A stretch of 64,000 nt of DNA from an uncultured bacterium (GTDB lineage Bacteria > Bacillota_I > Bacilli_A > RFN20 > CAG-826), in contig CASERQ010000004.1 of NCBI GenBank assembly GCA_949290395.1, positions 12,457-76,456 on the forward strand, given 5' to 3'. This document shows, piece after piece, positions 12,884 through 51,827 of the stretch (position 1 is the stretch's first letter; the number at the start of each line of letters is the position of its first letter). A program made the position numbers and the translations under genes. Under the pieces are notes generated by a model. That model had not been told where the DNA came from and ran no database searches. It was given only the letters and a program-made list of their open reading frames with translations.

Positions 12884-12914
12884 ACCTCCTTTGTATTAGT
12901 AAAGGAGGTTTTTT
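12884..12914 (+). terminator. Terminator/attenuator hairpin whose 3' arm contains the SD of the next gene
   Basis: 9-bp stem acctccttt (12884-12892) / aaaggaggt (12901-12909), 8-nt loop, six Ts. ATG of the following ABC gene is at 12916. Confidence 0.6.
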
Positions 12915-12915
12915 A

Positions 12916-14943: not shown

Positions 14944-17705
14944 AGATAGTCGTTAAGAATCTTACTAAAAAGTTTAAAGATAGAGTTTTATATAAGAATT
15001 TTTCTTTTGAATTCAAAGAGAAAACTTTTTATTCAATTGTTGGCGAAAGTGGATGTGGGAAGTCAACATTTCTTAATCTTCTATCATTAAACGACCCTGA
15101 TTTTGAAGGCGAAATTAACTATGGAGAGTTTTCTTATTCAAAGTTAACTGATAGCGAAAAACGAGATTTAAAAATTAAAAACTTTGGCTTTGTTTTTCAA
15201 AACTTTAACCTTTTTGAAGAGGATACTGTTTATAACAATTTAAGAGTAGTTCTTGATTCTATTGTAGATGAGAAAGAAGAAGTAAAACTTCGTCGCGTTG
15301 AAGAAATTCTAAAGATTCTTGATATAGAAAAACTTAAAGACTCTTATGTTAGAAATTTAAGTGGCGGCGAAAAACAAAGAGTTGCAATTGGAAGAGCGCT
15401 CATTACATCTCCAGAATATATATTTTGCGATGAACCAACTGGAAGTTTAGATGAAGAAAATACTATTAGAGTTTTTGAATTATTAAAGGAAATAAGTAGT
15501 TATTCAACAATCATTCTTGTTACTCATGATAAGAAAAACGCTGAAAAATACTCTGATTATATTTTAGAAATTAAGGATGAAAAGATTAGTCCTAGTTTTC
15601 ATAGTGTAAATTCTAGAGAAAATAGTATTCAAATTATGAATCTTAAAAAGAAGAAAAAATATGCATCATTATCGTCGAAATTTATATTTGGCCATTTTAA
15701 AAATCTTTTTAAAATAAGAAAAATTAGAAACCTTATTAAAAGTACATTATTGTCCTTATCTTTTATATCTGCTGGACTAGCAATTACTCTAACTTCGTCT
15801 TTAAATAATGGAATAACTTCCTCGTTTAGTTCTTTACTCAGCGATAACCAGATAGTAATAAAAAAGAAAAATTCTTCAAATAAAGTTATTGATTATTATT
15901 CTTCAAATAATCAGACAATCCAAGGTTTGCTTGCTAGATATCCTGAAGATATTCGAAGATATGGTGTTAATTATTTAGTGGATTTTGAAAATTATTTCAT
16001 CGATGGAAACGATCTTTATTCAATTAACTCAAATAACAAACGAAAATTAACGGGTTTTACTGCCCGTCACTTTAATGAATTCATTTATTTTAACTTAGAA
16101 GATGAATTAGTTATTTACCCAGAAATAAAAGAAGAACTTAAAGAAGATGAAATCGTACTTTCCCTTTCTTTTGATCAAATGAAAGAGATGTGCCTAGAAT
16201 TACAAATTTTAAGAAACTTTGAAAGTTTAGGAAATTATTTAAAGACAAATGATTATTATGTTTCTTTAGAACTTGCAAATTATTCTTGGCAGTATACTGA
16301 CGAACAAGTTTTTAAAATAAAAGGCGTTGTGTTTGATAACAAGAACCGAATTTATCATACTAGTCCAATTTTTAATGAAACAGTTTTTGAGGAAAAGATG
16401 AGGTTCCCGACTTCAAATAAAATAGATAAAGTTGAAGATTACCCGCGGATGTTTAAGAAGGTATATTTTATTGAAACAAAGACATTTCAAAGCTCTTTAT
16501 TGAATAAACTTTTCTATGATGAAAGATATAAAAATTTTATTTTTGATATTGATTCAAGCGAATATTCTCCTCTTAATTATGACTCCAAAAGTTTAAATAA
16601 TAAGATATACGTTTATGATGCTTTTAAAGATGCGATTGATATAGAAATTATTGATAATTTAAAGGAAAATGGAATTCATTTTGATAACTATTTTTATTCA
16701 ACTCCAGCTGGATATTTTAATAATGGAATGAGCATTTTTACTGGATTTAATAATCCAACATTTTTCTCTTTAGAGGAAGAGAAATTAGATAATATAATTG
16801 ATGCATATTCTAGAGTAAAAGCAGAAGAAATTTATAATATTGAGGTACCAGAAAATGTAGTCGATGCTTTTGCTTTAAAACCCACATCTGATAACGTTAA
16901 GTTTAAGGTTATTGATGAACCATTAAATCTTAGAGAAATTATAATTAGTAAGGGTTTTGCGGAGATTTTAAGTAAAAACATTGAAAATAACGAAGATATT
17001 TATGTGACAATGTTAGTAGAAAGTACCTTAAATGATGGTATTTTAGATACCACTTTTAGGACAATCAAACTTAAGATAAGAGCGATTATCGAAGAAGATA
17101 AAAGTGTCTCAATTTATCAAAACAAAGATTACTCAATTTCTTTATTTCGCGATCTATTTAAAGTATCTTCTTTTAGGTTAATTCCTAATTCAATTATTTT
17201 AGAAATGAATGAAAAAATCGATGAAGAAAACCTTAAAAAATTAAACACTTTATATGATGAGTATGAATTTCAAAATCCATTACTTGAAATAGAAAAAAGT
17301 GTAAATGAATCAACAAGTTTTCTTCGTTACATTCTTTATGCTTTTGCTTTAATAAGCTTAATTAGTTCAATCATTTTAAGCTTCATAATCACTTACATTA
17401 ATGCTAACGAACAGAGAAACGAAATTCGTTTATTAAAAATATTAGGCTTTAAAGATAAAGAGATTCTAAAGATGTTTGTAGTGGACAATATTTTTAGCTC
17501 TTTCCTTAGTATTTTAGTATCGTTTGCAAGTTTGATTTTTATAAATTTTCTTGTTGGGAATGCATTAGGGAAAGCGATAGGACTAACTCGTATTAATTTA
17601 TTTAACGCGCTATCAATCTTTACAATTTTAGCTTTAGCAATTCTTATAGTTTTCTTTGCAAGTTTTGGAACTAGAAGCGTAATTAAAGAAGAAGCCTTAA
17701 ATTAA
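14940..17705 (+). CDS. Fused ABC ATPase-FtsX permease (MacB-like) with about 550-aa extracytoplasmic domain
   Basis: GTG start overlapping the previous TGA. GESGCGKST, LSGGEKQR, CDEPTGSLD, then TM, huge loop, C-terminal FtsX TM bundle. Confidence 0.75.
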   Translation: MKIVVKNLTKKFKDRVLYKNFSFEFKEKTFYSIVGESGCGKSTFLNLLSLNDPDFEGEINYGEFSYSKLTDSEKRDLKIKNFGFVFQNFNLFEEDTVYNNLRVVLDSIVDEKEEVKLRRVEEILKILDIEKLKDSYVRNLSGGEKQRVAIGRALITSPEYIFCDEPTGSLDEENTIRVFELLKEISSYSTIILVTHDKKNAEKYSDYILEIKDEKISPSFHSVNSRENSIQIMNLKKKKKYASLSSKFIFGHFKNLFKIRKIRNLIKSTLLSLSFISAGLAITLTSSLNNGITSSFSSLLSDNQIVIKKKNSSNKVIDYYSSNNQTIQGLLARYPEDIRRYGVNYLVDFENYFIDGNDLYSINSNNKRKLTGFTARHFNEFIYFNLEDELVIYPEIKEELKEDEIVLSLSFDQMKEMCLELQILRNFESLGNYLKTNDYYVSLELANYSWQYTDEQVFKIKGVVFDNKNRIYHTSPIFNETVFEEKMRFPTSNKIDKVEDYPRMFKKVYFIETKTFQSSLLNKLFYDERYKNFIFDIDSSEYSPLNYDSKSLNNKIYVYDAFKDAIDIEIIDNLKENGIHFDNYFYSTPAGYFNNGMSIFTGFNNPTFFSLEEEKLDNIIDAYSRVKAEEIYNIEVPENVVDAFALKPTSDNVKFKVIDEPLNLREIIISKGFAEILSKNIENNEDIYVTMLVESTLNDGILDTTFRTIKLKIRAIIEEDKSVSIYQNKDYSISLFRDLFKVSSFRLIPNSIILEMNEKIDEENLKKLNTLYDEYEFQNPLLEIEKSVNESTSFLRYILYAFALISLISSIILSFIITYINANEQRNEIRLLKILGFKDKEILKMFVVDNIFSSFLSILVSFASLIFINFLVGNALGKAIGLTRINLFNALSIFTILALAILIVFFASFGTRSVIKEEALN

Positions 17706-25952: not shown

Positions 25953-28541
25953 ATGTTTAAAATCGAGAACTTAGGAAAGATATATAAAAGCTCTAAAAAG
26001 ATAGAAACTGTTGCGTTAAAAAATATAAATCTTGTTTTACCTAATAAAGGTTTTGTTATTGTTTTGGGAAAATCAGGAAGTGGGAAATCCACTTTATTAA
26101 ATCTACTTTCAGCGTTAGACAACAAAACAAGTGGAAAAATATATTTTAATAATCTTGATTATGATGCTTTAAGTGCTCAAGAAAAAACAACTTTAACTAA
26201 CAAAGAATTTGGCTTTGCTTTTCAAAGAGATGCTTTAATTAAAGAATTCACAGTTTATGATAATCTCCGACTTGTTTTAAATATTTTAGGCAAAGATATA
26301 AGTTTAGAAGAGTTAAAATCTTATTTAAAAGATTTTGATTTAAGTGAGGATTATTTAAAAAAATATCCTAGTGAACTTTCGGCTGGAGAAAGAGCCCGTG
26401 TTTCTTTATTAAGAGCTTTGATTAAAAAACCTAAAGTTTTGTTTGCTGATGAACCAACAGGAAATGTTGATCATAAAACAGCTCTTCTTGTTTTAAACAT
26501 TTTAGAAAAATATTCTAAAGAAATGCTTGTTATTATGGTTACTCATAATCAAGATGATGCCTATAAATATGCTGATAGATTAATCTTTCTTCAAGATGGA
26601 GTAGTTATTAAAGATTTAACAAAAAGAAAAGAAACAAGAAATGATTTTTATATCGATAAAAATGGTAACTTATATTTACCATACGCAAAAGCATTAAATG
26701 ATACTGAATTGCTCCTTTTAAATAACAAAAAACCAAATGCTAGAATCTATCAAAACAAATACGATTTTTATGAAACAAGTATTAAAGATATTGAACCTCA
26801 AATAATTGAGACAAAAAAGACTAAAACTAAAAATCATTTTAACTACGCTTTAAAATTACTTTTTAAGCGTTCTTTTTTTGTATGCTTGATGAGTTTTATA
26901 GTAGCTTTTTTAATGGTTGTAGGAAATATAGGTTACAATTTGTCGATTTATAGCTCTTCTCAAAGTAGAGAAAACTATAAAGCTATCCTAAACGAAAATC
27001 CAGTATATGCTAATAGAAAAGTAATTGATGATATTAATGATTTAATAACTTCTTTAGAAGAGATTGATGAAGAAACAATTAGTGAAATAGAAAGCAGATA
27101 CGATGGAAACGTTTATAGAATGTATCCTATAACAATGTTTAGTTATGGAACAACATTTAGGAAATCTGGTTATTTTTCTTGTGCTAAAGAGCCTTATATT
27201 TATAATCAAACTAATGGAACGCTTGTTTGTGATGTTGATTATTTAAGAGATTTATTTGGCATAGATGGTGAGCTAAAACTTGCTGCAGGAGAAATAAAAG
27301 AAAACTCAAGTGGCGTTATAATTACTGACTACCTAGCTGACTCTTTAAAGTATTCTTCAAATAATGGAGTATTTTATCCAGCTCCTTATGAGGACTTATT
27401 AAAAGTAAAGTTCCCTTTTAATTTAAAAATTGATGCAATCATTGAAACTAATTATGAAGGAAAGTTTAAAGAAGAACTTGCTACAATTCCTTCAGCCATC
27501 ACAACCTATGTAACTCATGCAATGCTTTATGATAAGTTATTTGATTATTATTCGGTTTTGTTTTCGGTGAATCAAAATTTTATAAATGATTATATAGAAT
27601 CAGCTTTAAATTCTGACCATCGAATATTTGATGCTTACTTTAATAAAAACGCGGTAACAGTAAATGATAAAAAGGCTACTTGTGATTTTACTGATTTAAG
27701 AATAAGTTTTGATGAAGCTTTAAATAAAGGTGAAGTTATTCTTAACTTAGATTTATATAACAAAATTATGGGAAGTGAATTTTATTCTCTTGATGAGCTT
27801 AAAAAAGAAGACTACGAAAATCTAAATGTTAAACTAGACAGCTACACGTCTTATTTTACTGATGCACCTAAAATAACTTTAAATAGTTTAAAGTTAAAAA
27901 CTATGTATCCATTTAATGGTTCGATGAAAATGTTTGTTTCTAAAGAAGATTTTAAAGATATTTTGCTTGCTTCTTATGTACCAGTTAGACTCTATTTTAA
28001 TGGACTAAAATTAAATCCCTCTTTAGCAAGTTTTTTAGAAAAAGAAGGCCTTTCTGAATACTTTTTGATGGATAACGCACTTTTAAATATAGAAGAAGTA
28101 GTTTTGATCTTTTCTGATGTTTTTAAAACTTTAGTGATAGTAATGCTTGTATTATCTTTATTTTTTGTGATTTTAATTGTTACTTTAGTTTTAAGAAAAG
28201 ACAAAGGAAATATAGGAATATTTAGAGCACTAGGTTTACAGATTAAAGACATCAATAAGTTATATATTTTGACTTTTATTGCTGTTTTAATCTTAGGAAT
28301 ATTCTTCTTATTTTTAGGTACATATTTAGGAAATATGCTCTGTAATTCTTTACTAGTAAACGGCTTTGAAATGTATATGGATTATGCAACTTTATATGGC
28401 TTAACTTTCCTAGATTATAATATTGTTTCAACTCTAATTTTAGGAGTCATCCTTGTTGTTTTTGTTTTAGTTTCCTTAATCATTCCTTATTTTGTTATTA
28501 AGAAAAATAAACCTATAGATATACTTAGGAATAATGAATAA
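25953..28541 (+). CDS. Fused ABC ATPase-FtsX permease (MacB-like) with large extracytoplasmic domain
   Basis: GKSGSGKST, LSAGERAR, ADEPTGNVD, then TM, about 400-aa loop, FtsX-type C-terminus. Confidence 0.75.
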   Translation: MFKIENLGKIYKSSKKIETVALKNINLVLPNKGFVIVLGKSGSGKSTLLNLLSALDNKTSGKIYFNNLDYDALSAQEKTTLTNKEFGFAFQRDALIKEFTVYDNLRLVLNILGKDISLEELKSYLKDFDLSEDYLKKYPSELSAGERARVSLLRALIKKPKVLFADEPTGNVDHKTALLVLNILEKYSKEMLVIMVTHNQDDAYKYADRLIFLQDGVVIKDLTKRKETRNDFYIDKNGNLYLPYAKALNDTELLLLNNKKPNARIYQNKYDFYETSIKDIEPQIIETKKTKTKNHFNYALKLLFKRSFFVCLMSFIVAFLMVVGNIGYNLSIYSSSQSRENYKAILNENPVYANRKVIDDINDLITSLEEIDEETISEIESRYDGNVYRMYPITMFSYGTTFRKSGYFSCAKEPYIYNQTNGTLVCDVDYLRDLFGIDGELKLAAGEIKENSSGVIITDYLADSLKYSSNNGVFYPAPYEDLLKVKFPFNLKIDAIIETNYEGKFKEELATIPSAITTYVTHAMLYDKLFDYYSVLFSVNQNFINDYIESALNSDHRIFDAYFNKNAVTVNDKKATCDFTDLRISFDEALNKGEVILNLDLYNKIMGSEFYSLDELKKEDYENLNVKLDSYTSYFTDAPKITLNSLKLKTMYPFNGSMKMFVSKEDFKDILLASYVPVRLYFNGLKLNPSLASFLEKEGLSEYFLMDNALLNIEEVVLIFSDVFKTLVIVMLVLSLFFVILIVTLVLRKDKGNIGIFRALGLQIKDINKLYILTFIAVLILGIFFLFLGTYLGNMLCNSLLVNGFEMYMDYATLYGLTFLDYNIVSTLILGVILVVFVLVSLIIPYFVIKKNKPIDILRNNE

Positions 28542-30708: not shown

Positions 30709-30797
30709 TGGTGCCCGGGACCGGAATCGAACCGGTACGGTATTGCTACCACAGGATTTTAAGTCCTGCGCGTCTACCTATTCCGCCACCTGGGCAC
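30709..30797 (-). tRNA. tRNA-Leu (anticodon TAA), class II, CCA encoded
   Basis: Reverse complement gtgcccaggtggcggaataggtagacgcgcaggacttaaaatcctg...ggttcgattccggtcccgggcacca. Long variable arm. Confidence 0.85.
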
Positions 30798-30802
30798 GAT
30801 AG

Positions 30803-30878
30803 TGGTGATCCACTGGAGATTCGAACTCCAGACCCCTTGATTAAAAGTCAAGTGCTCTACCGACTGAGCTAGTGGATC
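30803..30878 (-). tRNA. tRNA-Lys (anticodon TTT), CCA encoded
   Basis: Reverse complement gatccactagctcagtcggtagagcacttgacttttaatcaagg...ttcgaatctccagtggatcacca. Confidence 0.85.
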
Positions 30879-30887
30879 ATATGTTAA

Positions 30888-30963
30888 TGGCTGGGGTGGC
30901 TGGACTCGAACCAGCGAAATGACAGAGTCAAAGTCTGTTGCCTTACCTCTTGGCTACACCCCA
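30888..30963 (-). tRNA. tRNA-Gln (anticodon TTG), CCA encoded
   Basis: Reverse complement tggggtgtagccaagaggtaaggcaacagactttgactctgtc...ggttcgagtccagccaccccagcca. Confidence 0.85.
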
Positions 30964-30971
30964 AGACCTTT

Positions 30972-31055
30972 TGGTGGGAGGGGGCAGATTCGAACTGCCG
31001 AACCCGAAGGAATTGATTTACAGTCAACCGCGTTTAGCCACTTCGCTACCCTCCC
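30972..31055 (-). tRNA. tRNA-Tyr (anticodon GTA), class II, CCA encoded
   Basis: Reverse complement gggagggtagcgaagtggctaaacgcggttgactgtaaatcaa...ttcgaatctgccccctcccacca. Confidence 0.85.
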
Positions 31056-31075
31056 GGCTATATATTTCACGTTAA

Positions 31076-31151
31076 TGGTGGATGTTACAGGGCTTGAACC
31101 TATGACCTCCGCCGTGTAAAGGCGATGCTCTCCCAGCTGAGCTAAACATCC
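31076..31151 (-). tRNA. tRNA-Val (anticodon TAC), CCA encoded
   Basis: Reverse complement ggatgtttagctcagctgggagagcatcgcctttacacggcgg...ggttcaagccctgtaacatccacca. Confidence 0.85.
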
Positions 31152-37878: not shown

Positions 37879-37963
37879 GCGCGAGTGGCGGAACTGGTAG
37901 ACGCGTACGTTTGAGGGGCGTATAGGTATTCCTGTGTGAGTTCGATTCTCATCCCGCGCACCA
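37879..37963 (+). tRNA. tRNA-Leu (anticodon GAG), class II, CCA encoded
   Basis: gcgcgag-tg-gcggaactggtagacgc...anticodon loop ttGAGgg...gagttcgattctcatcccgcgcacca. One A/C mismatch in the acceptor stem. Confidence 0.75.
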
Positions 37964-38864: not shown

Positions 38865-39893
38865 TTACTCAATAATCTCTTTTTGTTGTTTTTCATTTGT
38901 ATTCTTATTTTCATATTTTTTAATACTCTTAAAGCCAAAATAATAGAAATTTCTCAATCTATTAGATAACTCCTCATTATCTAAAACTAAAGCATCGCTC
39001 CCAAAACGTAAAAAGTATTGGAATAGTTGGTTAATAGAAGCCTCAAAATAGTAAATATCATCTTCAATTAATATTGGTTTAGGTCGATTAATAAATATTT
39101 TTGTATAAGACTTTTGGCCTTTTTTAGTTAATTTAATTTTACATTTTATTATCGGAGAATTTATAAAGTGTGGCTCGTTTTTATCTAGATCTTTCTCTAT
39201 TTTTTCCTTTAAAGATGGAGATAAGTTGTCCTTAAAAGATCTAGAAACTCGCAAATCTTTTAATTTATAGAGGTTAATTACGTTATATGTAGTGGATGTG
39301 TAATAAATTAAATAGGCAAATTGTCTATCTTTTGAATTAAAAATACCTAATGGAGACACTTCGTATTTTATTTCTGTCCCCTTGTTATTTATAACTTTAA
39401 AGAAAATTTGTTTGTTGTTTTTAATGGCACTTTTAATTAAATCTATTTCTTCTTTAAATATAATTCTTTCTCTTTCGTCTTGATTAAGCTTTGCGTATTC
39501 ATTAAATAATTTCCTCAAATAACCGCTTAGAGTAAAGATGTATGAGTACTCGCTATATTCAATATCAAGTAAAGCGCCTTCAGATTCTTTTGTTGATATA
39601 AATGTTAATTCGCAATCTTTTTTAGTATCTGATTCTTCGTTTTTTTCTTTTATTTTCAATATTTCATGAACTAAATCTTCCTTGTTTTTATTGTCTTTTA
39701 AAAGGAGAAGTAGGTTATTTTCAAGCTTGCTAATTTTACTATTGATTACTTCATAGTAATTAGAAATTAGTCGATTAATAAACCTATTTTTGTTTGAACT
39801 GCCATCATTTTTTGCAAATCTAAAAGCATCAATATCATTTAGTAATACTGAATACGTGTAATATGATAACATTACTTTATATTTGTGTGACAT
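38865..39893 (-). CDS. Hypothetical protein (342 aa)
   Basis: Long ORF with K/E/N-rich composition. No recognisable catalytic motif. Confidence 0.45.
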   Translation of the reverse strand: MSHKYKVMLSYYTYSVLLNDIDAFRFAKNDGSSNKNRFINRLISNYYEVINSKISKLENNLLLLLKDNKNKEDLVHEILKIKEKNEESDTKKDCELTFISTKESEGALLDIEYSEYSYIFTLSGYLRKLFNEYAKLNQDERERIIFKEEIDLIKSAIKNNKQIFFKVINNKGTEIKYEVSPLGIFNSKDRQFAYLIYYTSTTYNVINLYKLKDLRVSRSFKDNLSPSLKEKIEKDLDKNEPHFINSPIIKCKIKLTKKGQKSYTKIFINRPKPILIEDDIYYFEASINQLFQYFLRFGSDALVLDNEELSNRLRNFYYFGFKSIKKYENKNTNEKQQKEIIE

Positions 39894-40821: not shown

Positions 40822-42051
40822 ATGGAAAAAAATGTATTCTTAAAAAACGTTTATGGTTATAAAAAGATTAAAGATGAGTTGTTCTTAATTAGAAGTTGGT
40901 ATCTAGATGAAAAAATTAAGGAAGAAAAGAAAGAGTTTCTTCCTAAAGGTATCCTTTTCTATGGTGAACCAGGCAATGGCAAAACTTTATTATTAAGGGA
41001 ATATTCAAAAAGCTTTGGTTTTAAGGTGTTTGTATTTGAAGGAAAGGAGGAAAACTTAAACAAGAATTTAATTAGTATTTACGAGAACGCCAAAAAAGAA
41101 AAAAATGCAATTGTTGTTATTGATGAATTAGATAGGTTGGTTAAAAGAGATGATAAATTAGAAAGAATCCTACAAACCCAACTTGATGGTCTTAATAACG
41201 AAGGAACTGTCCTCACTTTAGCAAGTGCTAACGATTACGATGCCTTGCCAGATGCTTTATTAAGAGAAGGTCGATTTGATAGAAAATTCTGTATTGATGT
41301 CGAAGATAAAAAAGATAATAAAGAAATTTTAGAAAAGCTTTTAAAAGAAAGAGAATTTAATATTAATGAATATGAACTTGAAGAATTAAACCTGCAATTA
41401 TTTGGTGAACCCATCAGTAAAATCAAATCCCTCTTGAATAGCGTATGCTTTAGATATGGGAAAAGTGCAAGCATTGATGATTTCTTAAAGGAATATTCTT
41501 TTAACGAATCAGGACATATTCAAGATGATAACTTAAATGTACCGGATTATGTTGCTGTTCATGAAGCAGGACACGCTTTATATGCAAAATTATTCGCTAA
41601 AAGATTAATTTTCTTAAGAGTAAATTGTAATAAAGAAGGTGGGAAAACGCACTGCTCTAGTTATGATAATATTCAAGACAGCGTTTATTGCTATAATCGT
41701 ATCGAAACGTCTCTTGCAGGAATGGCAGCAGAAGAAATTATCTTCGGCAAGCATAATGTTGGATGTAACAATGATATGAAAAAAGCATACGAAATGTCTT
41801 ATACAATTATGAATAATTCTATGCTTAATGGGTTAGATTTCTACTCACCAGCCCTTTATACAATTAATAACGGTCCTTCTGAATATGAAATGATGAAACA
41901 TGGAATTAGAACAAGTAAATTTATTGAAAAAGAGTTTAAACTCGTTAAAAAAAGATTAAAAAAATATAAAAAAGAAATCTTATTAATCGCAAAAATTATT
42001 AAAGAAAAGAGATGTTTGACTAGAGACGACATTAAAAATGTATTAGATTAA
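40822..42051 (+). CDS. Soluble FtsH-like AAA+ ATPase / M41 zinc-metalloprotease fusion (no TM or periplasmic domain)
   Basis: Walker A GEPGNGKT, Walker B VVIDELD, AAA arginine finger LREGRFDRKF (cf. FtsH RPGRFDR), HEXXH HEAGHAL, FtsH-like LAGMAAEEIIFG. aaggag SD. Confidence 0.8.
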   Translation: MEKNVFLKNVYGYKKIKDELFLIRSWYLDEKIKEEKKEFLPKGILFYGEPGNGKTLLLREYSKSFGFKVFVFEGKEENLNKNLISIYENAKKEKNAIVVIDELDRLVKRDDKLERILQTQLDGLNNEGTVLTLASANDYDALPDALLREGRFDRKFCIDVEDKKDNKEILEKLLKEREFNINEYELEELNLQLFGEPISKIKSLLNSVCFRYGKSASIDDFLKEYSFNESGHIQDDNLNVPDYVAVHEAGHALYAKLFAKRLIFLRVNCNKEGGKTHCSSYDNIQDSVYCYNRIETSLAGMAAEEIIFGKHNVGCNNDMKKAYEMSYTIMNNSMLNGLDFYSPALYTINNGPSEYEMMKHGIRTSKFIEKEFKLVKKRLKKYKKEILLIAKIIKEKRCLTRDDIKNVLD

Positions 42052-42084
42052 TTCAAAATGAGAATAAAAAAGAAGGAGTTAAAT

Positions 42085-43536
42085 ATGACATACGATATCA
42101 CTCGACTAGTAGAATTCGTGTTAAAAAAGTATAGTGATTATTACCATCCAATGTATAAGTCAGATGTACATAAAAAGGTTAATGAGTTAATTCGATTAGA
42201 AGACCACGAAGCAAAAGATATCGATAGAAAAACTATTTATAGTGCTATTGAAAAGCTAAAGAACGGGCCAAAAGAAACTAAAATTGTTGATTGTGAAAAC
42301 AAAAGAAAAATTTATTTCGATAATTGGGAAAAACTTAATGACTTTATAATTCTCTTTAGTAAACTTGATCCTGAAAATAAACAAGGGGCTCTAGATTTAT
42401 TTAAGGATGAAATTAGCGAATACCAGTATAAGAATTTCCAAAATATCATCAATGAAAACTTTAATAAAAGTGGCGATATTTATAAAAGCAAAAGCCGAAT
42501 TCTTCGTGAAAATCAAAATAAAATTACAGATATTATTAAAGAAAGAAAATGTGCAAGAATTACCGATTTTAATGGAGACACAAAAAATATTATCCCTCGA
42601 GAAGTTTTATTAAATTCTGACGGCAATATTTGTGTTAAAGGAATCACATTTAACGATCAAAGAACTAGAGGAAAAGTAATGGCAATAGACTTTTCAAATA
42701 TTAGAGAAGTTGATGAGGTAAGTTTTTTTGACATCGAAGCTATTTGTGACAACGTATGTAGAAATGTGAATCCAGAGGATAAAAAGGAGATTAAAGAATA
42801 TTATTCAAAGATGAACTTCCTTTCAACAGATAACTTATTTACTGCTGATTCAATTGAAGATATTTTAAAGAATGAAGATTTAAAAATTTATGTTGAAGAT
42901 GAAGTCATGTATTATTCTTATTCAACCGACGAATTAGATTTTGATCTTTTTTTCGATTTTATGAATGAGAAATTGGGTGAATTCAAAAAGAATGATAAAT
43001 TACTTAATAAAATAAAAAAAGTCTTCTATTCATCATTATTTTTGCAAAATAATAAAGGTGACAATTGCTGGGAAGACAAAAAGAGTATTGCTGAAGATTT
43101 AAACGATCTTGCAAAGATTACAGAATACGACATCGTCTATTATTCAATTCTAAAAAAACTATATGTTGATGGGGATAAATATGAATGCGCGAAAGCAATA
43201 GAAGTAGATAAACTTATTAAACGTCCTAAGCAATATGTTTCTGATTATGATGAATTCGATACATTAGCTAGTGTTACATGTGCTAAAAGAAGGATTGACT
43301 GGGCCTTATTCTTGGTTCACCAAAACACCCATTTTCTTTGTTATAAAGGCTGCGACAAAAAAATATTTAAAAAATTAATTTTGCTGGTCGAAGAAAATTG
43401 TGAATTTAACTCTTACCTTATGACTATTCTTAAATCTGCTTTAGAGAAAGCGGGAATCGTTGTATTAAAGAATTCTCAAGCTGACAATTTAGAAGAAATT
43501 AAAAAAATGTATTTCAAATACTTTGATATTGAATAA
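42085..43536 (+). CDS. Hypothetical protein co-transcribed with the FtsH-like gene; N-terminal wHTH-like segment
   Basis: Begins 34 nt after the upstream stop with gaaggag SD. N-terminus RKTIYSAIEKL resembles the HTH of DeoR/WYL-type regulators; the rest has no recognised domain. Confidence 0.45.
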   Translation: MTYDITRLVEFVLKKYSDYYHPMYKSDVHKKVNELIRLEDHEAKDIDRKTIYSAIEKLKNGPKETKIVDCENKRKIYFDNWEKLNDFIILFSKLDPENKQGALDLFKDEISEYQYKNFQNIINENFNKSGDIYKSKSRILRENQNKITDIIKERKCARITDFNGDTKNIIPREVLLNSDGNICVKGITFNDQRTRGKVMAIDFSNIREVDEVSFFDIEAICDNVCRNVNPEDKKEIKEYYSKMNFLSTDNLFTADSIEDILKNEDLKIYVEDEVMYYSYSTDELDFDLFFDFMNEKLGEFKKNDKLLNKIKKVFYSSLFLQNNKGDNCWEDKKSIAEDLNDLAKITEYDIVYYSILKKLYVDGDKYECAKAIEVDKLIKRPKQYVSDYDEFDTLASVTCAKRRIDWALFLVHQNTHFLCYKGCDKKIFKKLILLVEENCEFNSYLMTILKSALEKAGIVVLKNSQADNLEEIKKMYFKYFDIE

Positions 43537-43820: not shown

Positions 43821-44636
43821 ATGGAAAAAACAGATTTTATGAAACTTATAATAGATAATGTTTCAAATTTTAAAGGCAGCGTTGGAAAAAGGTACCTTTC
43901 ATGGGAATATTGTTATGAAGAATTTTATAAAGCGATAGAAGATGTAAAAAACGGGAAAAGCATTGATAATAATAGATATTTATATCTGAGTCTTCATTTA
44001 GCATTTTATCTTGCTTCCTGGGGCATGTATCGAGGATCTTCGTTTCTTTTGAAATTCGACTATAAAGTTCATTTACCAACAGTAAAATTGATTTTAAATG
44101 AAAAATATTCTTCATTGCTTTGTTTTAATCGGGACAAAACAGCCAAGAATTATAATCAAAATTTGGAACTGTTATTTGGGAAGGATGGCAATGAAGGTTT
44201 GGTGCAGGAAATTAAAGACATCTATCTAAAGTTAAAGTTAGAAGTAAAAAATTCTAAAAATAATAGCACAATAGTTAGTGTTAGCGATGAAACCGATGCT
44301 AAGGAAAATAGCGATGAATATGTATCTGAGATCTTAGTAAGTAAGATTTTATTGGGAACTTTAGGGTGTGTTCCTGCATACGATACTATGCTAAAAAGAG
44401 CTTTAAAATCAGCAAGAGATGATTATGGACTTAAAATTTGTTCTAAGTTCGGAAAAAAATCTATTGAAAGCATAGTTGGATTTTGTAATGACATGAAAAA
44501 GTTGCTTGATAATAGAGAAAAAATATTTTTAGAAAACAATGTTAAAATAGAATATCCACTGATGAAAATTTTAGATATGGGTCTTTGGGAAATTGGAAAA
44601 CAAGAGATTGACAAAGAAAAAGAGGGAACGAAATGA
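43821..44636 (+). CDS. Hypothetical protein (271 aa)
   Basis: aaaggag SD. No motif recognised. Confidence 0.45.
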   Translation: MEKTDFMKLIIDNVSNFKGSVGKRYLSWEYCYEEFYKAIEDVKNGKSIDNNRYLYLSLHLAFYLASWGMYRGSSFLLKFDYKVHLPTVKLILNEKYSSLLCFNRDKTAKNYNQNLELLFGKDGNEGLVQEIKDIYLKLKLEVKNSKNNSTIVSVSDETDAKENSDEYVSEILVSKILLGTLGCVPAYDTMLKRALKSARDDYGLKICSKFGKKSIESIVGFCNDMKKLLDNREKIFLENNVKIEYPLMKILDMGLWEIGKQEIDKEKEGTK

Positions 44637-44940: not shown

Positions 44941-45702
44941 ATGACACAAAAAGTAATTGTAGAAAATGTTGAAATGGAGAAGATATCAAAATTATTAGAG
45001 TTAAAGGAAGAGTACTTGTCCACCCTTGATGATAAAATATACAATAGTTTACTTGTATTAAGGAAATATTTAGAAGTCGATAAATCTTATAATGGTAAAT
45101 TTACGACCTTTAAATATAACAAGAATACGAAATTAATTATTGTTGGCACTATAACTCCGCCAGAAACTGATTTTTATTACTGTAAATATAGCAAGAAACC
45201 AAATTATAATACTTTGAATTATTTATTCGACTATTATAAAGACAAAGTCACTTTAATAGAGGATGAAAGATACAAAGAAGATATAAACAATTTAAAAAAG
45301 GATCTTGCAAACGATAAAAATAATAAAAATTATTATATCGACTTGTTAATAAATGCGCTTAATGATAGAGGGGTTTTATTCTTGGATGTAGTCAAAAAAG
45401 TTTTGAGACCTGCTTCCTCTAAAGATGCAGATTTTGTTTGCTTATCTTTGGATTGGGAAAGTTTTTTAGAACCTTTAAAAGATTTTTTTGCTAAGGATTC
45501 GTCGCTTAAGATTGTTACAAACAGCTTAGATGCTGAAGGTTATTTTAAAAAAATAATCAAAAAAGTGAATGTTAAAACAGGATCTAATTATAAATTTAAA
45601 GAAAATATGAAGAATTACAAACGTCTCACACAAATAACAAGGGGAGAAAAAATGAAAAACAAGAATAAAGAAGAACGGGGGGAATTATTAAGTAGCTTAT
45701 AA
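44941..45702 (+). CDS. Hypothetical protein (254 aa)
   Basis: Start at MTQKV (ggag SD). Lys/Asn-rich C-terminus. Confidence 0.4.
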   Translation: MTQKVIVENVEMEKISKLLELKEEYLSTLDDKIYNSLLVLRKYLEVDKSYNGKFTTFKYNKNTKLIIVGTITPPETDFYYCKYSKKPNYNTLNYLFDYYKDKVTLIEDERYKEDINNLKKDLANDKNNKNYYIDLLINALNDRGVLFLDVVKKVLRPASSKDADFVCLSLDWESFLEPLKDFFAKDSSLKIVTNSLDAEGYFKKIIKKVNVKTGSNYKFKENMKNYKRLTQITRGEKMKNKNKEERGELLSSL

Positions 45703-46070: not shown

Positions 46071-46697
46071 ATGATATTCAGCAGTGAAATTAAATTAAAA
46101 AGTTATATTGAAGTTCTTAAAAATGAACCTTTAAATGCGATTATTGAAGAATATAAAGGTTTTGTTAAACTCACAGATGTTGTTGATTTTTTTATAAAAA
46201 GAATAGCTTTTACATTTGCAAAAATTTCTAAAGAAATTAAAAACTATTATATTAAAGATAAGAATTTTAAAGAATTAGAAAAATATTCATATAATATATG
46301 TCACCGAGCTTATTTAAGACTAAATAATCTGGATTTAATCTTAAAAAATCAAAGTTTTGAAAAGTTGATTGAATTATATAAAGACTCTGTTATTAGTAAA
46401 GTTCCCGATTTATCAAACAAAGCAAGCATGTTGAAAGATATAAAAAGACTTTATAATGTTTATTTTGAACGTAATGGTAAATTTAGTGAACTTAAAGATA
46501 AAATATTTAGGGCTAAAGCCGTCTGTCTAGCTTGTTTAGAAAAATTTGGGGTAAAAATTCCTAATACAGAAGGACTTTTTATGCACGCTTTTGTCGCGGA
46601 TTATTTTTATGAAACAGAAGCTCTTAAAAAGGCTAACGCACTTGCAGAAGACTTTTATTTATTAGAATTATTTTCTATTTGCTCGAGTTTGAATTAG
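46071..46697 (+). CDS. Hypothetical protein (208 aa)
   Basis: caggagg SD and TATAAT box upstream. No motif recognised. Confidence 0.45.
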   Translation: MIFSSEIKLKSYIEVLKNEPLNAIIEEYKGFVKLTDVVDFFIKRIAFTFAKISKEIKNYYIKDKNFKELEKYSYNICHRAYLRLNNLDLILKNQSFEKLIELYKDSVISKVPDLSNKASMLKDIKRLYNVYFERNGKFSELKDKIFRAKAVCLACLEKFGVKIPNTEGLFMHAFVADYFYETEALKKANALAEDFYLLELFSICSSLN

Positions 46698-46715: not shown

Positions 46716-47429
46716 ATGCTTTATATTGATTATGTTATTAAAGAAAGATATATAAACGAAACATTTAAAAATATTACTAGAAATGAAGATGCTTTAGATA
46801 CATTGAATAAAGAGTCATTTAATTTGCGTGTTCAAAAAAATCTTTTAAACGAAGTATACCTCGATCTATTAGCGTTCTTAGATAAGTTATTAATTTCAGG
46901 CAGAAAATATAATGGTCCTGAAATTTATGATTATAAAGAAATATTAGAAGAATTTCTTAAAAATATCAAAATGAAAATTCATGAAACAAATACAAATCTT
47001 CATAAAGCAACTCATATTGAAGTTAGTTTATTTAATTGTGTTGATGTAAATGAAGATTTGATTATTTATAAAAGATTCATCAAATTCAATAAATTTCCTA
47101 AATATTTAAAGCAGAAAAATATAGATGATTATAAGTTGTTTCTATCTTGTGAATTTGATGATTGCTTTGGCGCAGGCGGACTACTTACTAAAATAAAAGG
47201 TGTAATTACTGATCTTAGCGATTATGTAGAGCTATTTGAACAACAAGTGATCGACAGCAAAAGTAAACTTGAAGAAGCATTAAGTAACTGCAAGTATTTC
47301 ACAAACGACCTTCCAGTGTTAACAAGAGGAAGCAGTTTTGAGATGCTTTATTCATTTTTACTCACGAAATTATTAAATGGATTAAAGAAAATATATAACG
47401 AAGGAGTTGGTTATGTGACTCTGAATTAA
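46716..47429 (+). CDS. Hypothetical protein (237 aa)
   Basis: gtggagg SD, 18 nt after the previous stop (co-transcribed pair). Confidence 0.45.
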   Translation: MLYIDYVIKERYINETFKNITRNEDALDTLNKESFNLRVQKNLLNEVYLDLLAFLDKLLISGRKYNGPEIYDYKEILEEFLKNIKMKIHETNTNLHKATHIEVSLFNCVDVNEDLIIYKRFIKFNKFPKYLKQKNIDDYKLFLSCEFDDCFGAGGLLTKIKGVITDLSDYVELFEQQVIDSKSKLEEALSNCKYFTNDLPVLTRGSSFEMLYSFLLTKLLNGLKKIYNEGVGYVTLN

Positions 47430-47542: not shown

Positions 47543-48118
47543 TTGAATCAATTATTAAAAATTATAAAAGAAAGGAGTTTTATCATTAAAATAATTTTAT
47601 TGGATAGAAACTATATGATGGTTTTAGCACGGCAAAAATATTTTGAGAGTGAAAAAGAAGTTGAAATAGTTTGTGATGCAGTAGAACATTATTTATCAAA
47701 AAACTTTGTTGATGGAATCGTAACTCCGGGAAATTCTTATGGAATAATGACTGGCGGCTTTGATAAAGGTATTAGAAATTATTTTGGTTTGGCTTTAGAG
47801 AATAAAATCCAAAATTATATAGATTCAAATTTGCATTTTAAACAACAAGTTGGAACAAGTTTTATTATTGAAGGTGGCAAAAATAATATTAAAGTTATTC
47901 ATACACCTACAATGGAAGAACCTTCTGAAATTAAAGATTTAAACGTAATTTACCTTTCCACTATGTCTTCTTTAAAACTTGCAAAGAAAAACGATTTAAA
48001 TTCTGTAATTCTCCCTGCTTTTGGTGGAGCAACAGGGAAAGTAAATTTCTTTAAAGTTTCTGAATTAATGTATAAAGCTTTCAAAGATTTTAAGAAGCAA
48101 TCACTTAAATGCGTGTAA
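47543..48118 (+). CDS. Macro-domain-like protein (putative ADP-ribose binding/processing)
   Basis: VDGIVTPGNSYGIMTGGFDKGIRNYFG aligns to the macro core [27 protein letters not shown] (N-G-GG-D-G-I-G positions conserved). Start uncertain: TTG 47543 or ATG 47615. Confidence 0.45.
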   Translation: MNQLLKIIKERSFIIKIILLDRNYMMVLARQKYFESEKEVEIVCDAVEHYLSKNFVDGIVTPGNSYGIMTGGFDKGIRNYFGLALENKIQNYIDSNLHFKQQVGTSFIIEGGKNNIKVIHTPTMEEPSEIKDLNVIYLSTMSSLKLAKKNDLNSVILPAFGGATGKVNFFKVSELMYKAFKDFKKQSLKCV

Positions 48119-48184: not shown

Positions 48185-49411
48185 ATGAGTAAATTTTCAA
48201 CAAGTGAAATTCATCGCATTGAACTTTTAATCACTATTTCTTATTTATTAAAATTTAGTGATTCAAAACATCCTGTTTCGCAACTTGATATTTGTCGTTA
48301 TGCTACAAATTTTGGTTTGAAGTTTGATGAAAATAATCTTGCTGGAAATGACATTAGAAGACAAAGAATTAAAGATGTTTTAGTTTTTCTTGAAGATCTT
48401 TCGAATAGAAATTTCATTGATTTTCCTTTTAAAGTTTTGTCTACGGATAAAGGAAAATATTATATAGAGAATAAGTTTCGTCTTTCAAAAGGGGATATTT
48501 TTAATGTTGTTTTATCTATTGAAAATAATAGGTACATCAAAGACGAAGTGTCGAAAGACTTAATTGATAAAATATTAAACATTTTATCTTCAAAATATGA
48601 AAAAATCGATTTTGAGGCTACATTAAAACAGGTAATTTCTCCAAAACGCAAGTGTTCGAATTATACAGCAGCATCCCTTAGTAAGTTGATGAATGCCATA
48701 AAAAAAGAGAGAATAGTTCAGCTAAGGCAATTAAAATATGAATATGATGAGATTAAAAAAGATTTCATTTTAAAAGACGTGAAAAAATGGTATCGAGTTT
48801 ATACAATTAAAGAATATAATGGCAAATTATATGCTTTGTTAATTGCTGTTGTTGATGGGGAAATCATTTTAGAGGACGTTAGATCTATCTACATTACAGG
48901 TCAAAAAAAGCGGACTTTTGCAGAAGATTTCGTTAAAAATAGAGATTTAAATCGTTTATTTATTGAAAATAACGTTAACGGAAAATCGATAGATGCTTAT
49001 ATAAAAGAAGCTAAAATGCCTTTAAATCCAAATACAAAGAAGATATCTTTCTCTTTTAAAGGATTGTATTTAAGAATGATAGAAACATCGTTTAGAGATT
49101 ATTTTTCTGAAACTTTAAATTTTGTAATTTGTAATGATTTTAAAATTGAAAATACGGGCAATGAGACAAGACTTATTAGTTTAGATTCTCAATCTTCGGA
49201 AAAACTGACGGAGAAATACATGTTATCTAAAATAATTGATGAGAACATTAACGTCATTGTCAATATTTCAATTAATATGGACGGCTTTACAAATTGGATA
49301 TTATCCAATCCATTGATACCGCAAATAATTACAGTTTATAATGGTCATATAAATAAAACTTTAGCTCAACATTTTCAAGCGTTAGCAAAGAAATACGAAA
49401 AATATCTATAG
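48185..49411 (+). CDS. Hypothetical protein with N-terminal HTH-like and central WYL-like beta-rich segment (putative regulator)
   Basis: N-terminus IHRIELLITISYLLKFSDSKHPVSQLDICRYATNFGL is HTH-like. KWYRVYTIKEYNGKLYALLIAVVDGEIILEDVRSIYI resembles the WYL core (WYL...RxFRLDRI). Confidence 0.35.
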   Translation: MSKFSTSEIHRIELLITISYLLKFSDSKHPVSQLDICRYATNFGLKFDENNLAGNDIRRQRIKDVLVFLEDLSNRNFIDFPFKVLSTDKGKYYIENKFRLSKGDIFNVVLSIENNRYIKDEVSKDLIDKILNILSSKYEKIDFEATLKQVISPKRKCSNYTAASLSKLMNAIKKERIVQLRQLKYEYDEIKKDFILKDVKKWYRVYTIKEYNGKLYALLIAVVDGEIILEDVRSIYITGQKKRTFAEDFVKNRDLNRLFIENNVNGKSIDAYIKEAKMPLNPNTKKISFSFKGLYLRMIETSFRDYFSETLNFVICNDFKIENTGNETRLISLDSQSSEKLTEKYMLSKIIDENINVIVNISINMDGFTNWILSNPLIPQIITVYNGHINKTLAQHFQALAKKYEKYL

Positions 49412-49816
49412 GCATAATTTTTGAGTTTATTTTTACTAAAAATTAGTATAAAAAGCGCCGACGTTGGTAGTCTTATATTCCCAAATGTGACGCTTTTTAT
49501 TTTATTTTTATCACTTACCTTTTTAACTAAAAAATGACTTAAGTTCAATTTGTGCTTTTTTATTTTTTGAATATTTTAGTTGCTACATCAAAAACACCAT
49601 CTAAATATTAATGGTTATATATTTAATTTTTGTTCACTTCTATGAACATTTTTGATTTTAAACGCAAATAAGTTCATTTAATAATTAAACTATCATCAAG
49701 GAGGAATGAATTGCAAATTGACTTAAATTTACATAAAAACTTTTAAATAACAAAAAACAACCAAAAATCAATTTTATGAAAGTTTTGCATGGTTTTCGTC
49801 TATTTATTTATAGAAA

Positions 49817-50110
49817 ATGAAATTGGAGTTTGAGATTAGTGATGATGATTACAAAATGCTGCAAAAGTATTTTTCTCTAAACGGAGAAACCTTAGAAAGC
49901 ATTATTCAAAGTAAAATCAAAGAAGGTCTAAAAAGTATAGAAACAATTAAAAAAGAGAATGAAAAAAATAAAGTTGCGATGAAAATTATAAAAAATATAA
50001 AAGAGAGGAGACTTGTAGATTTGAGTATTGTCAAAATACAAAAAATATATAATATAGGTTTTCCGCTTTCGGGAAAGATATATTTTTATCACAAGTTGTT
50101 CGTTGAATAG
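49817..50110 (+). CDS. Hypothetical small protein (97 aa) immediately upstream of the second FtsH-like gene
   Basis: ORF ends at the second FtsH-like gene, 38 nt before its start at 50151. No SD. Helical, K/E-rich. Confidence 0.35.
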   Translation: MKLEFEISDDDYKMLQKYFSLNGETLESIIQSKIKEGLKSIETIKKENEKNKVAMKIIKNIKERRLVDLSIVKIQKIYNIGFPLSGKIYFYHKLFVE

Positions 50111-50150
50111 TAAATATAGATTATTAAAAAAAGAAAGGAAATTTATAGAT

Positions 50151-51482
50151 ATGGAGAATCAAAAAGTTTTTGGCAAAGTAATTGGTTGTGAAACGCAAAT
50201 TAATGAGTTAATTAATATTATTAACTGGTTTAAAAATAGTGAGAAAAACAAAATGAAGGGACTAGATGTACCTAGAGGTATTATTCTTTATGGAAAGCCA
50301 GGAAATGGTAAATCATTAATAATGAGAGAATTAAAAAATTATCTGAGTGATACTCCATGCTATGTTTATAATCGCGAGTCTTTCAATGTCGTCAAAGAAC
50401 TTAATAATCTCTTTCAGAAAGCAAGCTTAGACAGTAAAGCTGTTATTTTAATCGATGAATTAGATTTATTAATTGACAAAGATAAAAGTGTAGTTAGATG
50501 TTTACAAGAAAATCTCGATGGAATCGAAGAAGTTAGTAAAAATATATTAGTAGTCACGGCTTGTAACTATTTATACGATATACCTGAGCCTCTAAAAAGA
50601 AGAGGAAGATTATCGTCATTAATTGCTTTTTCTTGTCCCAACACAGACGAAATTATCAAGCTTGTTAAAAATCAGATTGATAAATATGGTCTTAATAAAG
50701 AAATAGCTGAAGATGATGAATTGATTAATGCTTTTAATGGTGATTCATTTGTAACTATTAAGTCGATGATTGATGAAACGATTTTAACAAAGGGATCTTT
50801 TGATATAAATAGTGACGATATTATTGAAACTATATATAAATATGAAAATGGATCGATTAAAAATAAAGAAAAATCTCCATTTAATGTCGCAATACATGAA
50901 GCTGGTCATATTATATTAAATTTAAAGTATGCTCACGCAAATAAATTAAGTGGGGTAAAAATTAATGGCGGTCAAGGTTATTGTGTTTCTAAACAAACAA
51001 ACGAGTCAACTAAATATAGTGATTTTTTAAATAGGGCAGAAATTTTCTTGGCTGGGAGACAAGCCGAAAGAATTTTCTTCAAAGAAGGTAGTATTGGATG
51101 TAGCGATGATTTAGAAAGTGCAAGGCACATTGTTTATTCACTTGTTAATAGTTGCGGCTATTTAGGTTTAGGGTATGTACTTCCTAAAGAACATAATAGA
51201 AATCATAGTGTCTCTGCTTTCAAACTCAATAAGAACGAAAAGAAAGAAGAAAAAATTCTAAAAAGATTAGACAAAAAAGTTTACCGATATTTAAAAGGCA
51301 AAAAGAAATTGGTATATAATTTGGCTGAAGCTATTTACGAAAAAGGATATATGACAGCTAAAGAGATAAAAAGATTTGTTGAAAATTATTATAGTCGTTC
51401 TCAACAAAGCCTGCCTAATATCGAGAATAAAAAAGTTATACAACAAGAAATTTTTGATTTAAATAAATTGAAAGCTTTCTAA
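50151..51482 (+). CDS. Soluble FtsH-like AAA+ ATPase / M41 zinc-metalloprotease fusion, paralog 2
   Basis: N-terminus MENQKVFGKVIGCETQINEL parallels paralog 1 MEKNVFLKNVYGYKKIKDEL. GKPGNGKS, ILIDELD, HEAGHII, FLAGRQAERIFF. SD aaaggaaa; ORF-track TTG 50103 is less likely. Confidence 0.75.
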   Translation: MENQKVFGKVIGCETQINELINIINWFKNSEKNKMKGLDVPRGIILYGKPGNGKSLIMRELKNYLSDTPCYVYNRESFNVVKELNNLFQKASLDSKAVILIDELDLLIDKDKSVVRCLQENLDGIEEVSKNILVVTACNYLYDIPEPLKRRGRLSSLIAFSCPNTDEIIKLVKNQIDKYGLNKEIAEDDELINAFNGDSFVTIKSMIDETILTKGSFDINSDDIIETIYKYENGSIKNKEKSPFNVAIHEAGHIILNLKYAHANKLSGVKINGGQGYCVSKQTNESTKYSDFLNRAEIFLAGRQAERIFFKEGSIGCSDDLESARHIVYSLVNSCGYLGLGYVLPKEHNRNHSVSAFKLNKNEKKEEKILKRLDKKVYRYLKGKKKLVYNLAEAIYEKGYMTAKEIKRFVENYYSRSQQSLPNIENKKVIQQEIFDLNKLKAF

Positions 51483-51827
51483 TTTGCAAAAGTAAAACAT
51501 CTATTTAGCAATAGCGATTTCTGTAAAAGGTAGTAAAGTCATGCTACCTTTTTTTGTTTTTCTTTATAAACTTTTTTAAAAAAGATTTTTTTATATCGAT
51601 TTTGCGAGTTTTTTAGAATAAGCTTATAAAATATGAAACCAAAAAACTAATAATGTCTAAGATAAGGCAAACAATTGAATATCATAAAGAAATTACCATA
51701 AAAATTGATTTCGAACTGTGGTCTATAAGCGTTTCTTATTTTAGTTTTATTATCCTAGAGCGTTTTTTGTCGCTTATATAAAATCACATGCTTAGATAGC
51801 AGTATAATTGACCTTTGAAATTTATTA

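Follow-up and report, generated by a model that had tools for sequence, protein, structure and literature searches.

We describe here a protease gene of an uncultured bacterium of the CAG-826 lineage (Bacillota_I, Bacilli_A), carried by a stretch of 64,000 nucleotides (nt) of contig CASERQ010000004.1 that we call the window. The gene product, P2 (50151..51482, plus strand), is a soluble AAA+/M41 zinc metalloprotease of 443 residues. We give an even chance to the reading in which P2 belongs to a conflict system linked to ADP-ribosylation, as a non-threading protease that is switched by ATP and controlled by a WYL-type regulator and a ribbon-helix-helix (RHH)-like protein. The evidence comes from the architecture of the protein family, from the conserved gene cassette to which P2 belongs, and from the genes found next to its relatives in other lineages.

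P2 and the soluble AAA-M41 family

The open reading frame (ORF) 50103..51482 (+) is intact, and its ATG at 50151 coincides with the start of all homologues (MENQKVF or MERNEVF), which gives the 443-residue product. P2 carries GKPGNGKS, ILIDELD, HEAGHIIL and AGRQAERIFF, all four of the motifs pointed out in a preliminary description of this DNA, and scores above the gathering thresholds of Pfam AAA (62.5 bits) and Peptidase_M41 (61.2 bits). The same two Pfam domains make up P1 (409 residues; 40822..42051, plus strand), a second soluble protease of the window. P2 begins about 40 residues before Walker A. Neither protein has a transmembrane segment, no hydrophobic window of 19 residues being present in P1 or P2; the membrane FtsH loci show two such windows each. 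The motifs, the two domains and the missing transmembrane segment bear out the earlier view of P2 as a soluble FtsH-like protease. Membership in the FtsH equivalog family itself (NCBIfam TIGR01241, cut-off 600 bits) was considered for both proteins and rejected, as P2 scores 106.6 bits and P1 100.5 bits, far below the cut-off.

Relatives were collected by a word-indexed search of 5.8 billion proteins, which returned 200 sequences, and the best 120 of these 200 were characterised. They are 312 to 532 residues long and have the AAA and M41 domains only; the soluble family comprises at least 120 clusters. Walker A and HExxH are kept in all family members. In an alignment of 26 family sequences Walker A (G-PG-GK[ST]), Walker B (DE-D), the sensor-1 residue N139 and the arginine fingers R150 and R153 are invariant, and so is the zinc site formed by H249, E250 and H253 of the HExxH motif together with D320. 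We take this conserved aspartate to be the third zinc ligand, as in FtsH structures. Over its whole length the family profile can be aligned with FtsH cytosolic regions of known structure (7zbh, 6gcn, 4ww0 and 2ce7; E 1e-62 to 1e-54), and the PDB profile search found no closer solved relative.

The family departs from classic AAA+ proteins at the pore loops. A gap of six residues stands where the aromatic pore-1 loop sits, the aromatic-hydrophobic-Gly motif (FVG) being gone, and the pore loop 2 region after Walker B is 8 to 12 residues shorter in all 120 family members checked. Spacings were measured in these best 120 of the 200 family members and in 10 membrane FtsH proteins from the fetched loci. 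Walker A and Walker B lie 45 residues apart in 111 of the 120 (43 to 46 in all) versus 51 in membrane FtsH, and the distance from Walker B to the (L/M)DG motif is 16 residues in 120 out of 120 versus 24 to 28. Judged from the sequences, the family is derived from FtsH with its catalytic residues intact, and lacks both the anchor and the translocation loops. Catalytic domains of YME1L deprived of the anchor, the element that drives hexamerisation, stay monomeric unless they are forced into hexamers (PMC5095350). Regulated assembly would therefore be a reasonable mode of control for the family.

The alignment and phylogeny against FtsH envisaged in the preliminary description set the soluble proteins apart: in a neighbour-joining tree built from their joint alignment with membrane FtsH they form one clade, separate from the membrane proteins. 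The distribution of the family is patchy, in variable islands. When one genome per species was scanned, seven loci proved to be close and soluble (L014-L020; L-numbers designate contig loci of the relatives), L070 and L075 came in addition, and the other matches were membrane FtsH. Exact and near-exact copies of the P1 and P2 genes are present in several metagenomes. No close relative of the soluble family was found in IMG/VR. A viral origin was considered and rejected, because IMG/VR holds only distant FtsH-like genes, mostly of giant viruses and at most 28% identical, and no relative of the WYL protein WYL-342 introduced below. Literature searches retrieved no description of a soluble FtsH-like defence protein family, and public sequence sources attach no names to these proteins.

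The w97-P2 unit and its upstream region

A small unit ends with P2: the gene follows w97 (49817..50110, +) and precedes an intrinsic-terminator-like hairpin with a T-run (51525..51552, +), located 43 nt past the P2 stop. This unit lies downstream of w408, the gene of a WYL-type regulator, at the end of the conserved cassette. P2 has its own ribosome-binding site, GAAAGGA (50133..50139, +), 11 nt 5' of the ATG, and the TAG of w97 at 50108-50110 is followed by the P2 ATG 40 nt downstream. For the two ORFs to overlap, P2 would have to start at the TTG at 50103, which is not conserved. Because of the 40-nt gap and the separate ribosome-binding site, w97 and P2 are close and co-oriented and not strictly translationally coupled, which corrects the coupling claimed earlier.

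The 97-residue K/E-rich ORF reported ahead of P2 exists, with 17 K, 10 E and 14 I. Its homologues form four clusters, and a more distant homologue, 53% identical, is present in L010 and L243 (five sequences at 53-75% identity). The codons of w97 and its L002 ortholog differ by 29 synonymous and 26 non-synonymous changes, which marks w97 as a real coding gene under purifying selection. Its N-terminus may be RHH-like: the best PDB profile match, a weak one (E 0.03, residues 5-43), is the RHH protein HP0222. The AlphaFold2 model, with a predicted local distance difference test score of 70, has an extended N-terminus followed by helices over residues 9-21 and 26-62 and, at the C-terminus, by two short ones, and fold searches are dominated by long-helix matches. 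The C-terminal motif YNIGFPLSGKI is part of an invariant segment, SIxKIQKxYNIGFPLSGKI, which by eye resembles the helix-turn-helix of FtsK-gamma. Pfam FtsK_gamma gives no match in w97 at E values up to 10; hhalign places residues 64-89 on Pfam-verified FtsK_gamma regions of a protein of L017 (E 0.005) and of a fusion protein of L019 (E 0.09). These resemblances suggest that w97 is probably a small DNA-binding protein.

A perfect 7-bp hairpin, TTTTCCGCTTTCGGGAAA, is found at 50059..50076, 30 nt ahead of the w97 stop codon and within the best-conserved coding stretch of that gene (GFPLSGK). It may be a codon coincidence or an attenuator ahead of P2.

The spacer between w408 and w97 is 405 nt long, a length kept in L002. 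It contains the palindrome TGTTC-N8-GAACA (49631..49648), a candidate operator, which occurs once in the window versus 0.08 occurrences expected and is kept in the orthologous spacer of L002. The upstream gene w408 (48185..49411, +) codes for a 408-residue regulator of the winged helix-turn-helix (wHTH)-WYL-WCX type. Its fold comprises an N-terminal winged helix, a central WYL barrel and a C-terminal extension, with extra helices; Pfam WYL gives no match. Homologues of w408 adjoin AAA-M41 genes in L008 and L070 as well, making this regulator a conserved neighbour of the protease.

A conserved cassette rather than a pair of proteases

Ahead of w408 and in the same orientation (+) are w259 (44941..45702), whose position varies between locus types, w208 (46071..46697) and w237 (46716..47429), the last two coding for cassette proteins without recognisable domain, and a gene for a Macro-domain protein with an ADP-ribose binding or hydrolase fold (47615..48118; Pfam Macro E 2.5e-13). 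The Macro protein is 68-76% identical in all cassette loci and has a weak PADLOC match to DarG (E 1.8e-6), and w237 is kept in L002, L010, L012 and L243. Two gene orders are found among the relatives. In type 1 (L002/L003) the order is w259, w208, w237, Macro, w408, w97 and AAA-M41, the P2 ortholog being 71% identical and no P1 gene lying upstream. In type 2 (L010/L011, L012/L013 and L243-245) AAA-M41 comes at the head, followed by w208, w237, Macro, w259 and w408, directly after McrBC. A second AAA-M41 gene of L012 lies on the opposite strand, with the WYL gene WYL-345 directly upstream of it. Since both gene orders have a single AAA-M41, the conserved unit is a six-gene cassette (w259, w208, w237, Macro, w408 and one AAA-M41 at either end) and not the pair of paralogs.

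P1 and P2 are 28% identical end to end (E 3e-40), and in the tree the main subclade contains P2 and its L002 ortholog, whereas P1 groups with L018, L019a and L020 in a sister subclade of the same soluble clade. The divergence between them is therefore old, as the preliminary description had it. That description also proposed that the two proteases act as a sensor/effector pair or mark the borders of a composite element, and neither proposal is supported: L002 has the P2 ortholog without P1, a single AAA-M41 heads the cassette in L010 and L244, and the loci with two copies, L012 and L019, do not contain orthologous pairs. The co-occurrence of the two paralogs in other genomes thus reveals no conserved pair.

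The genomic surroundings of the cassette change from genome to genome. In the window it is found just past tRNA-Leu(GAG) (37879..37963, +), which forms the left edge of a low-G+C island; G+C is about 28% over the window and 25-27% in the stretch from 38 to 52 kb. The domain scan of the window proteins found no integrase at the island, and the search for att-type direct repeats at its borders gave a 12-nt chance match only.

Pfam, NCBIfam, PHROGs and PADLOC returned nothing usable for w97, w208, w237, w259, w271, w492 and w179, and the profiles of w259, w237 and w208 had spurious or no matches to PDB sequences. DarT/DUF4433 was not matched in the cassette proteins. The invariant motifs IVGTxTP..FYY..NTL..LF and F(L/I)DV..V.R..S.D of w259 look by eye like those of family-6-type uracil/hypoxanthine-DNA glycosylases; an assignment of w259 as a glycosylase was rejected, no Pfam, NCBIfam or PDB-sequence match supporting it.

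ADP-ribose hydrolases and other neighbours of the family

Among the neighbours of the family, enzymes for the removal of ADP-ribose recur most consistently. Genes for ADP-ribose hydrolases are found near soluble AAA-M41 genes in 6 of about 15 independent lineages. They are the Macro protein in the cassette lineage, a nucleotidyltransferase-PARG fusion in L020, and ARH in both L017 and L019. Two further loci, L246 and L248, were picked blindly, solely for their long contigs, and both are positive, with ARH two genes downstream in L246 and both Macro and ARH in L248. The same queries detected no Macro, ARH or PARG in the control loci, which were 71 loci of membrane FtsH, 80 viral loci and 64 ROOL RNA loci.

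Other neighbours are of the defence type. They include McrBC in the type 2 cassette loci, GmrSD, a Cas4/DUF2779 nuclease, AAA_13, HipA, Fic and HAD_SAK_2, the 'Swiss Army Knife' RNA-repair HAD domain. A restriction-modification pair, SNF2, an SLFN-type helicase, a patatin and AAA_14/DUF4143 are also found. DNA-binding partners recur, namely the WYL proteins, w97 and an FtsK_gamma-HAD protein in L017, and the second AAA-M41 protein of L019 has an FtsK_gamma domain fused at its C-terminus.

Both blind loci are compact insertions between sugar-metabolism genes. The one in L246 (10001..14788) is composed of AAA-M41, a small ORF, ARH, a gene for a 253-residue protein and a short FtsK/SpoIIIE-type ATPase, and the one in L248 (10001..15576) of AAA-M41, a gene for a 218-residue protein, Macro, DUF2130 and ARH. 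These insertions may be a minimal form of the system.

A ROOL RNA and a WYL gene next to P1

A full-length ROOL RNA (RF03087; 40007..40576, +) lies 246 nt upstream of P1. It scores 195.5 bits versus a gathering threshold of 99.1 (Rfam, E 4e-43) and covers positions 1-574 of the covariance model. Divergent from it, across a spacer of 113 nt, is the gene of WYL-342, a WYL-domain protein of 342 residues (38865..39893, minus strand; PADLOC WYL E 1e-11). The WYL-ROOL pair is present with the same spacer in L010 (ROOL at 13595..14168), L012 (14815..15381) and L243 (7096..7669), where the WYL protein is 73-74% identical; in L012 the WYL ortholog is followed by an AAA-M41 gene on the same strand. The conserved spacer has a CTTATAAT box immediately 5' of the point where the RNA begins, and the block ACGATATTTATCAAT is conserved in it as well. 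The preliminary description, whose interpretation is borne out in part, had left out this RNA directly upstream of P1, the WYL regulators and the macro-domain cassette.

A second occurrence comes from L019, a locus of a different Bacilli genome (a metagenome-assembled genome from horse faeces) that was fetched through AAA-M41 homology alone. Within its segment 8876..16381 the space between two AAA-M41 genes is taken by a strongly diverged ROOL (12991..13540, minus strand, 201 bits). One of these genes is of the P1 type, its product being 35% identical to P1; the other is the FtsK_gamma-fused gene, which is followed by ARH. With an nhmmer profile, ROOL was detected neither in the 151 control FtsH loci nor in the remaining soluble loci.

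In the literature ROOL RNAs belong to phages or prophages, lie close to tRNAs and have neither a known function nor a known protein partner (PMC12286853, PMC5737381). The ROOL control set consists of 64 loci (L174-L237) fetched with a degenerate pattern, 11 of which were tested with Rfam. All 11 are true ROOL at 285-367 bits and are located in dense tRNA arrays, with more than 20 tRNAs in L212. No homolog of AAA-M41, WYL-342 or w408 was found in the 64 loci, and a universal association of ROOL with AAA-M41 is rejected on this ground. The exact 31-nt core of the ROOL RNA has no match in the metagenome or viral sets searched. ROOL seems to occur in two genomic contexts with different score classes. 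The scores of the loci that combine ROOL with AAA-M41, taken with the 64 negative loci, confine the AAA-M41 link to a lower-scoring ROOL subclass (195-202 bits), in two independent lineages. The ROOL of the window resembles known copies in being full-length and beside a tRNA gene (PMC12286853, PMC5737381); it differs from them in that typical loci are phage or prophage tRNA arrays at 285-367 bits, whereas the 195-202-bit subclass stands in a chromosomal island next to WYL and AAA-M41 genes. Literature searches found neither a link between ROOL and a WYL protein nor a ROOL in such an island context. On a metagenomic contig, L204, a DUF3800-VIII RNA motif (4223..4289) lies directly upstream of a tRNA-ROOL-tRNA cluster.

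It is conceivable, and in our view rather doubtful, that the soluble AAA-M41 and WYL proteins are the first protein partners or regulators of a ROOL subclass, the island then being a ribonucleoprotein conflict system in which the RNA nanocage would act jointly with an ATP-switched protease and an enzyme that hydrolyses ADP-ribose.

Comparison with known systems

Like the membrane-anchored proteases FtsH, YME1 and AFG3L2, P2 has a classic-clade AAA+ module with the second region of homology, followed by an M41 domain with HExxH and the third-ligand Asp. It differs from FtsH, which has two transmembrane helices and a periplasmic domain, an aromatic-hydrophobic-Gly pore-1 motif and a full pore-2 loop, and which is universal, whereas the P2 family is island-borne and patchy.

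IetAS also brings together an AAA ATPase and a protease in a defence context, and IetA is the best PADLOC match of both paralogs. The match is weak (32-40 bits, with hits of 40 and 36 bits among them) and concerns the generic AAA region; moreover, the M41 domain of P2 is fused to the ATPase, whereas IetS is a separate S8 subtilase, a protein that Pfam and PADLOC did not detect in the island. The resemblance to DarTG is limited to the weak DarG match of the Macro protein, and the cassette has no DarT partner.

The regulators CapW, BrxR, DriD and PafBC share with w408 the wHTH-WYL-WCX fold and are placed beside the systems they control. The w408 protein differs in being longer, with extra helices, and in having no Pfam WYL match; a candidate operator is the conserved palindrome in the spacer downstream of its gene. 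To our knowledge none of the known cases of these regulators controls an AAA-M41 protease. Two members of the WYL class, CapW and DriD, respond to single-stranded DNA or to DNA damage. For CapW, the sensing of single-stranded DNA is reported in PMC11662680.

Proposed role of P2 and alternative explanations

In the reading that we favour, P2 would be the protease component of an anti-phage, anti-mobile-element or anti-toxin conflict system linked to ADP-ribosylation. The ATPase would serve as an assembly or conformational switch and not as a threading motor, so that P2 would probably cut specific targets instead of degrading unfolded chains processively. The candidate targets are an ADP-ribosylated protein, an incoming ADP-ribosyltransferase or a partner encoded in the cassette. 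Two regulators would keep the expression of P2 in check, the WYL-type w408 and, at the conserved palindrome, the RHH-like w97.

Several observations weigh against this proposal. Several members of the family (L008, L015) are flanked by housekeeping genes, and no defence gene is found less than 10 kb away from them; the link to ADP-ribose was seen in 6 of the roughly 15 lineages, not in all. No curated defence-system model of PADLOC matched beyond the weak generic AAA hit (IetA, 40 bits). The loss of the pore loops is read from an alignment, and a non-canonical translocation path may exist. The fold assignment of w97 is weak, and the stretch between w408 and w97 has no canonical terminator that could be detected, so that the division into transcription units is tentative. 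Literature searches found no experiment or paper on the soluble AAA-M41 family.

The placement of w97 and w408 next to P2 is also what one would expect of a protease-repressor switch. P2, activated by a signal, would cleave its own DNA-binding neighbour (w97 and/or w408) and so derepress the cassette, in the manner of ImmA-ImmR, IrrE-DdrO and CapP-CapH, where too a zinc metalloprotease gene stands beside a small DNA-binding gene in a mobile or defence context. AAA-M41 genes are often beside genes for DNA-binding proteins, be it w97 and w408 here, the w408 homologues of L008 and L070 or WYL-345 in L012; the L019 protease is fused to the DNA-binding domain FtsK_gamma, the lost pore loops fit site-specific cutting, and the conserved palindrome is upstream of w97. 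However, the known switches use ATP-independent M78/COG2856 peptidases in place of M41 joined to an ATPase, and cleavage of its neighbours by P2 is hypothetical. Many members (L004, L006 and L014-L016) have no adjacent DNA-binding gene, the small ORF of L008 is unrelated to w97, and such a switch leaves the link to ADP-ribose hydrolases unexplained. We hold it to be a tentative possibility on the unlikely side. A different emphasis falls on the RNA: AAA-M41 and the WYL protein, coming from a phage-like element, would partner or regulate the ROOL nanocage, and the function would concern RNA and not ADP-ribosylation. The position of ROOL 246 nt before P1, the ROOL-WYL pair kept in L010, L012 and L243, the independent, divergent ROOL between two AAA-M41 genes in L019 and its absence from all 151 control FtsH loci speak for this view. 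Yet the 64 other ROOL loci have no AAA-M41, WYL-342 or w408 homolog, most soluble AAA-M41 loci have no ROOL, the link is restricted to two independent lineages, and P2 itself is 9.6 kb away from the RNA, all of which makes this explanation quite doubtful.

Two further explanations would place P2 among ordinary cellular functions. As a housekeeping paralog it would be a cytosolic quality-control protease that supplements membrane FtsH; its catalytic sites are intact and some homologues lie among metabolic genes (L008, L246). We find this distinctly improbable, as P2 is located in a low-G+C island beside a tRNA gene, the family is patchy and the cassette is placed differently in related genomes. 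Moreover, the two copies of the window are just 28% identical, the unfolding pore loops are lost, and the apparently metabolic loci are small insertions with ARH or WYL genes. The possibility that P1 and P2 are decaying fragments of a housekeeping ftsH, which the preliminary description had named as the finding that would overturn its interpretation, has virtually no likelihood left, nothing having been found in its favour. The family profile matches P1 and P2 over positions 18-429 of 430 without frameshift or stop, and detects no third copy, fragment or canonical ftsH in the window, which therefore contains no ftsH fragments or frameshifts. Uninterrupted frames, retained catalytic residues, the copies in metagenomes and the same short architecture in at least 120 clusters all contradict decay; the fragment explanation is refuted by the intact frames and the conservation of the family.

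Other features of the window

Two genes located 3' of P1, w492 (42058..43536, +), which starts 6 nt past P1, and w271 (43821..44636), were seen only in contigs of this strain. The N-terminus of the w492 product (LKKYSDYYHP) is colinear with the winged-helix start of w408 (LLKFSDSKHP). A relationship between the two proteins is not established, the hhalign score (E 0.32, not significant) concerning the wHTH region only.

Five tRNA genes (Leu, Lys, Gln, Tyr and Val) are located at 30709..31151 (-), about 7 kb before the island. Very large fusions of an ABC ATPase with an FtsX-type permease are encoded at 512..3280, 12877..17705 and 25953..28541. The remaining window is ordinary chromosome (UvrA, Lgt, YchF and GltX).

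Significance

Should the AAA-M41 and WYL proteins be partners of ROOL, this abundant RNA, whose structure is solved, would gain a testable genetic context. In two distant lineages a ROOL subclass has a conserved WYL gene and soluble AAA-M41 genes as neighbours; this rare genetic handle on the RNA may outweigh the main finding on P2.

Proteases of the FtsH type are textbook examples of membrane-anchored threading machines. The existence of a large soluble branch in which the ATPase and zinc sites are retained, while anchor and threading loops are gone, points to a different use of the same scaffold, probably one of regulated assembly and specific cleavage. That this branch is repeatedly paired with Macro, PARG and ARH suggests a class of conflict or repair systems, not described so far, with ADP-ribosylation at its centre, and the recurrence of WYL-type regulators beside the family adds to the picture of a conflict system.

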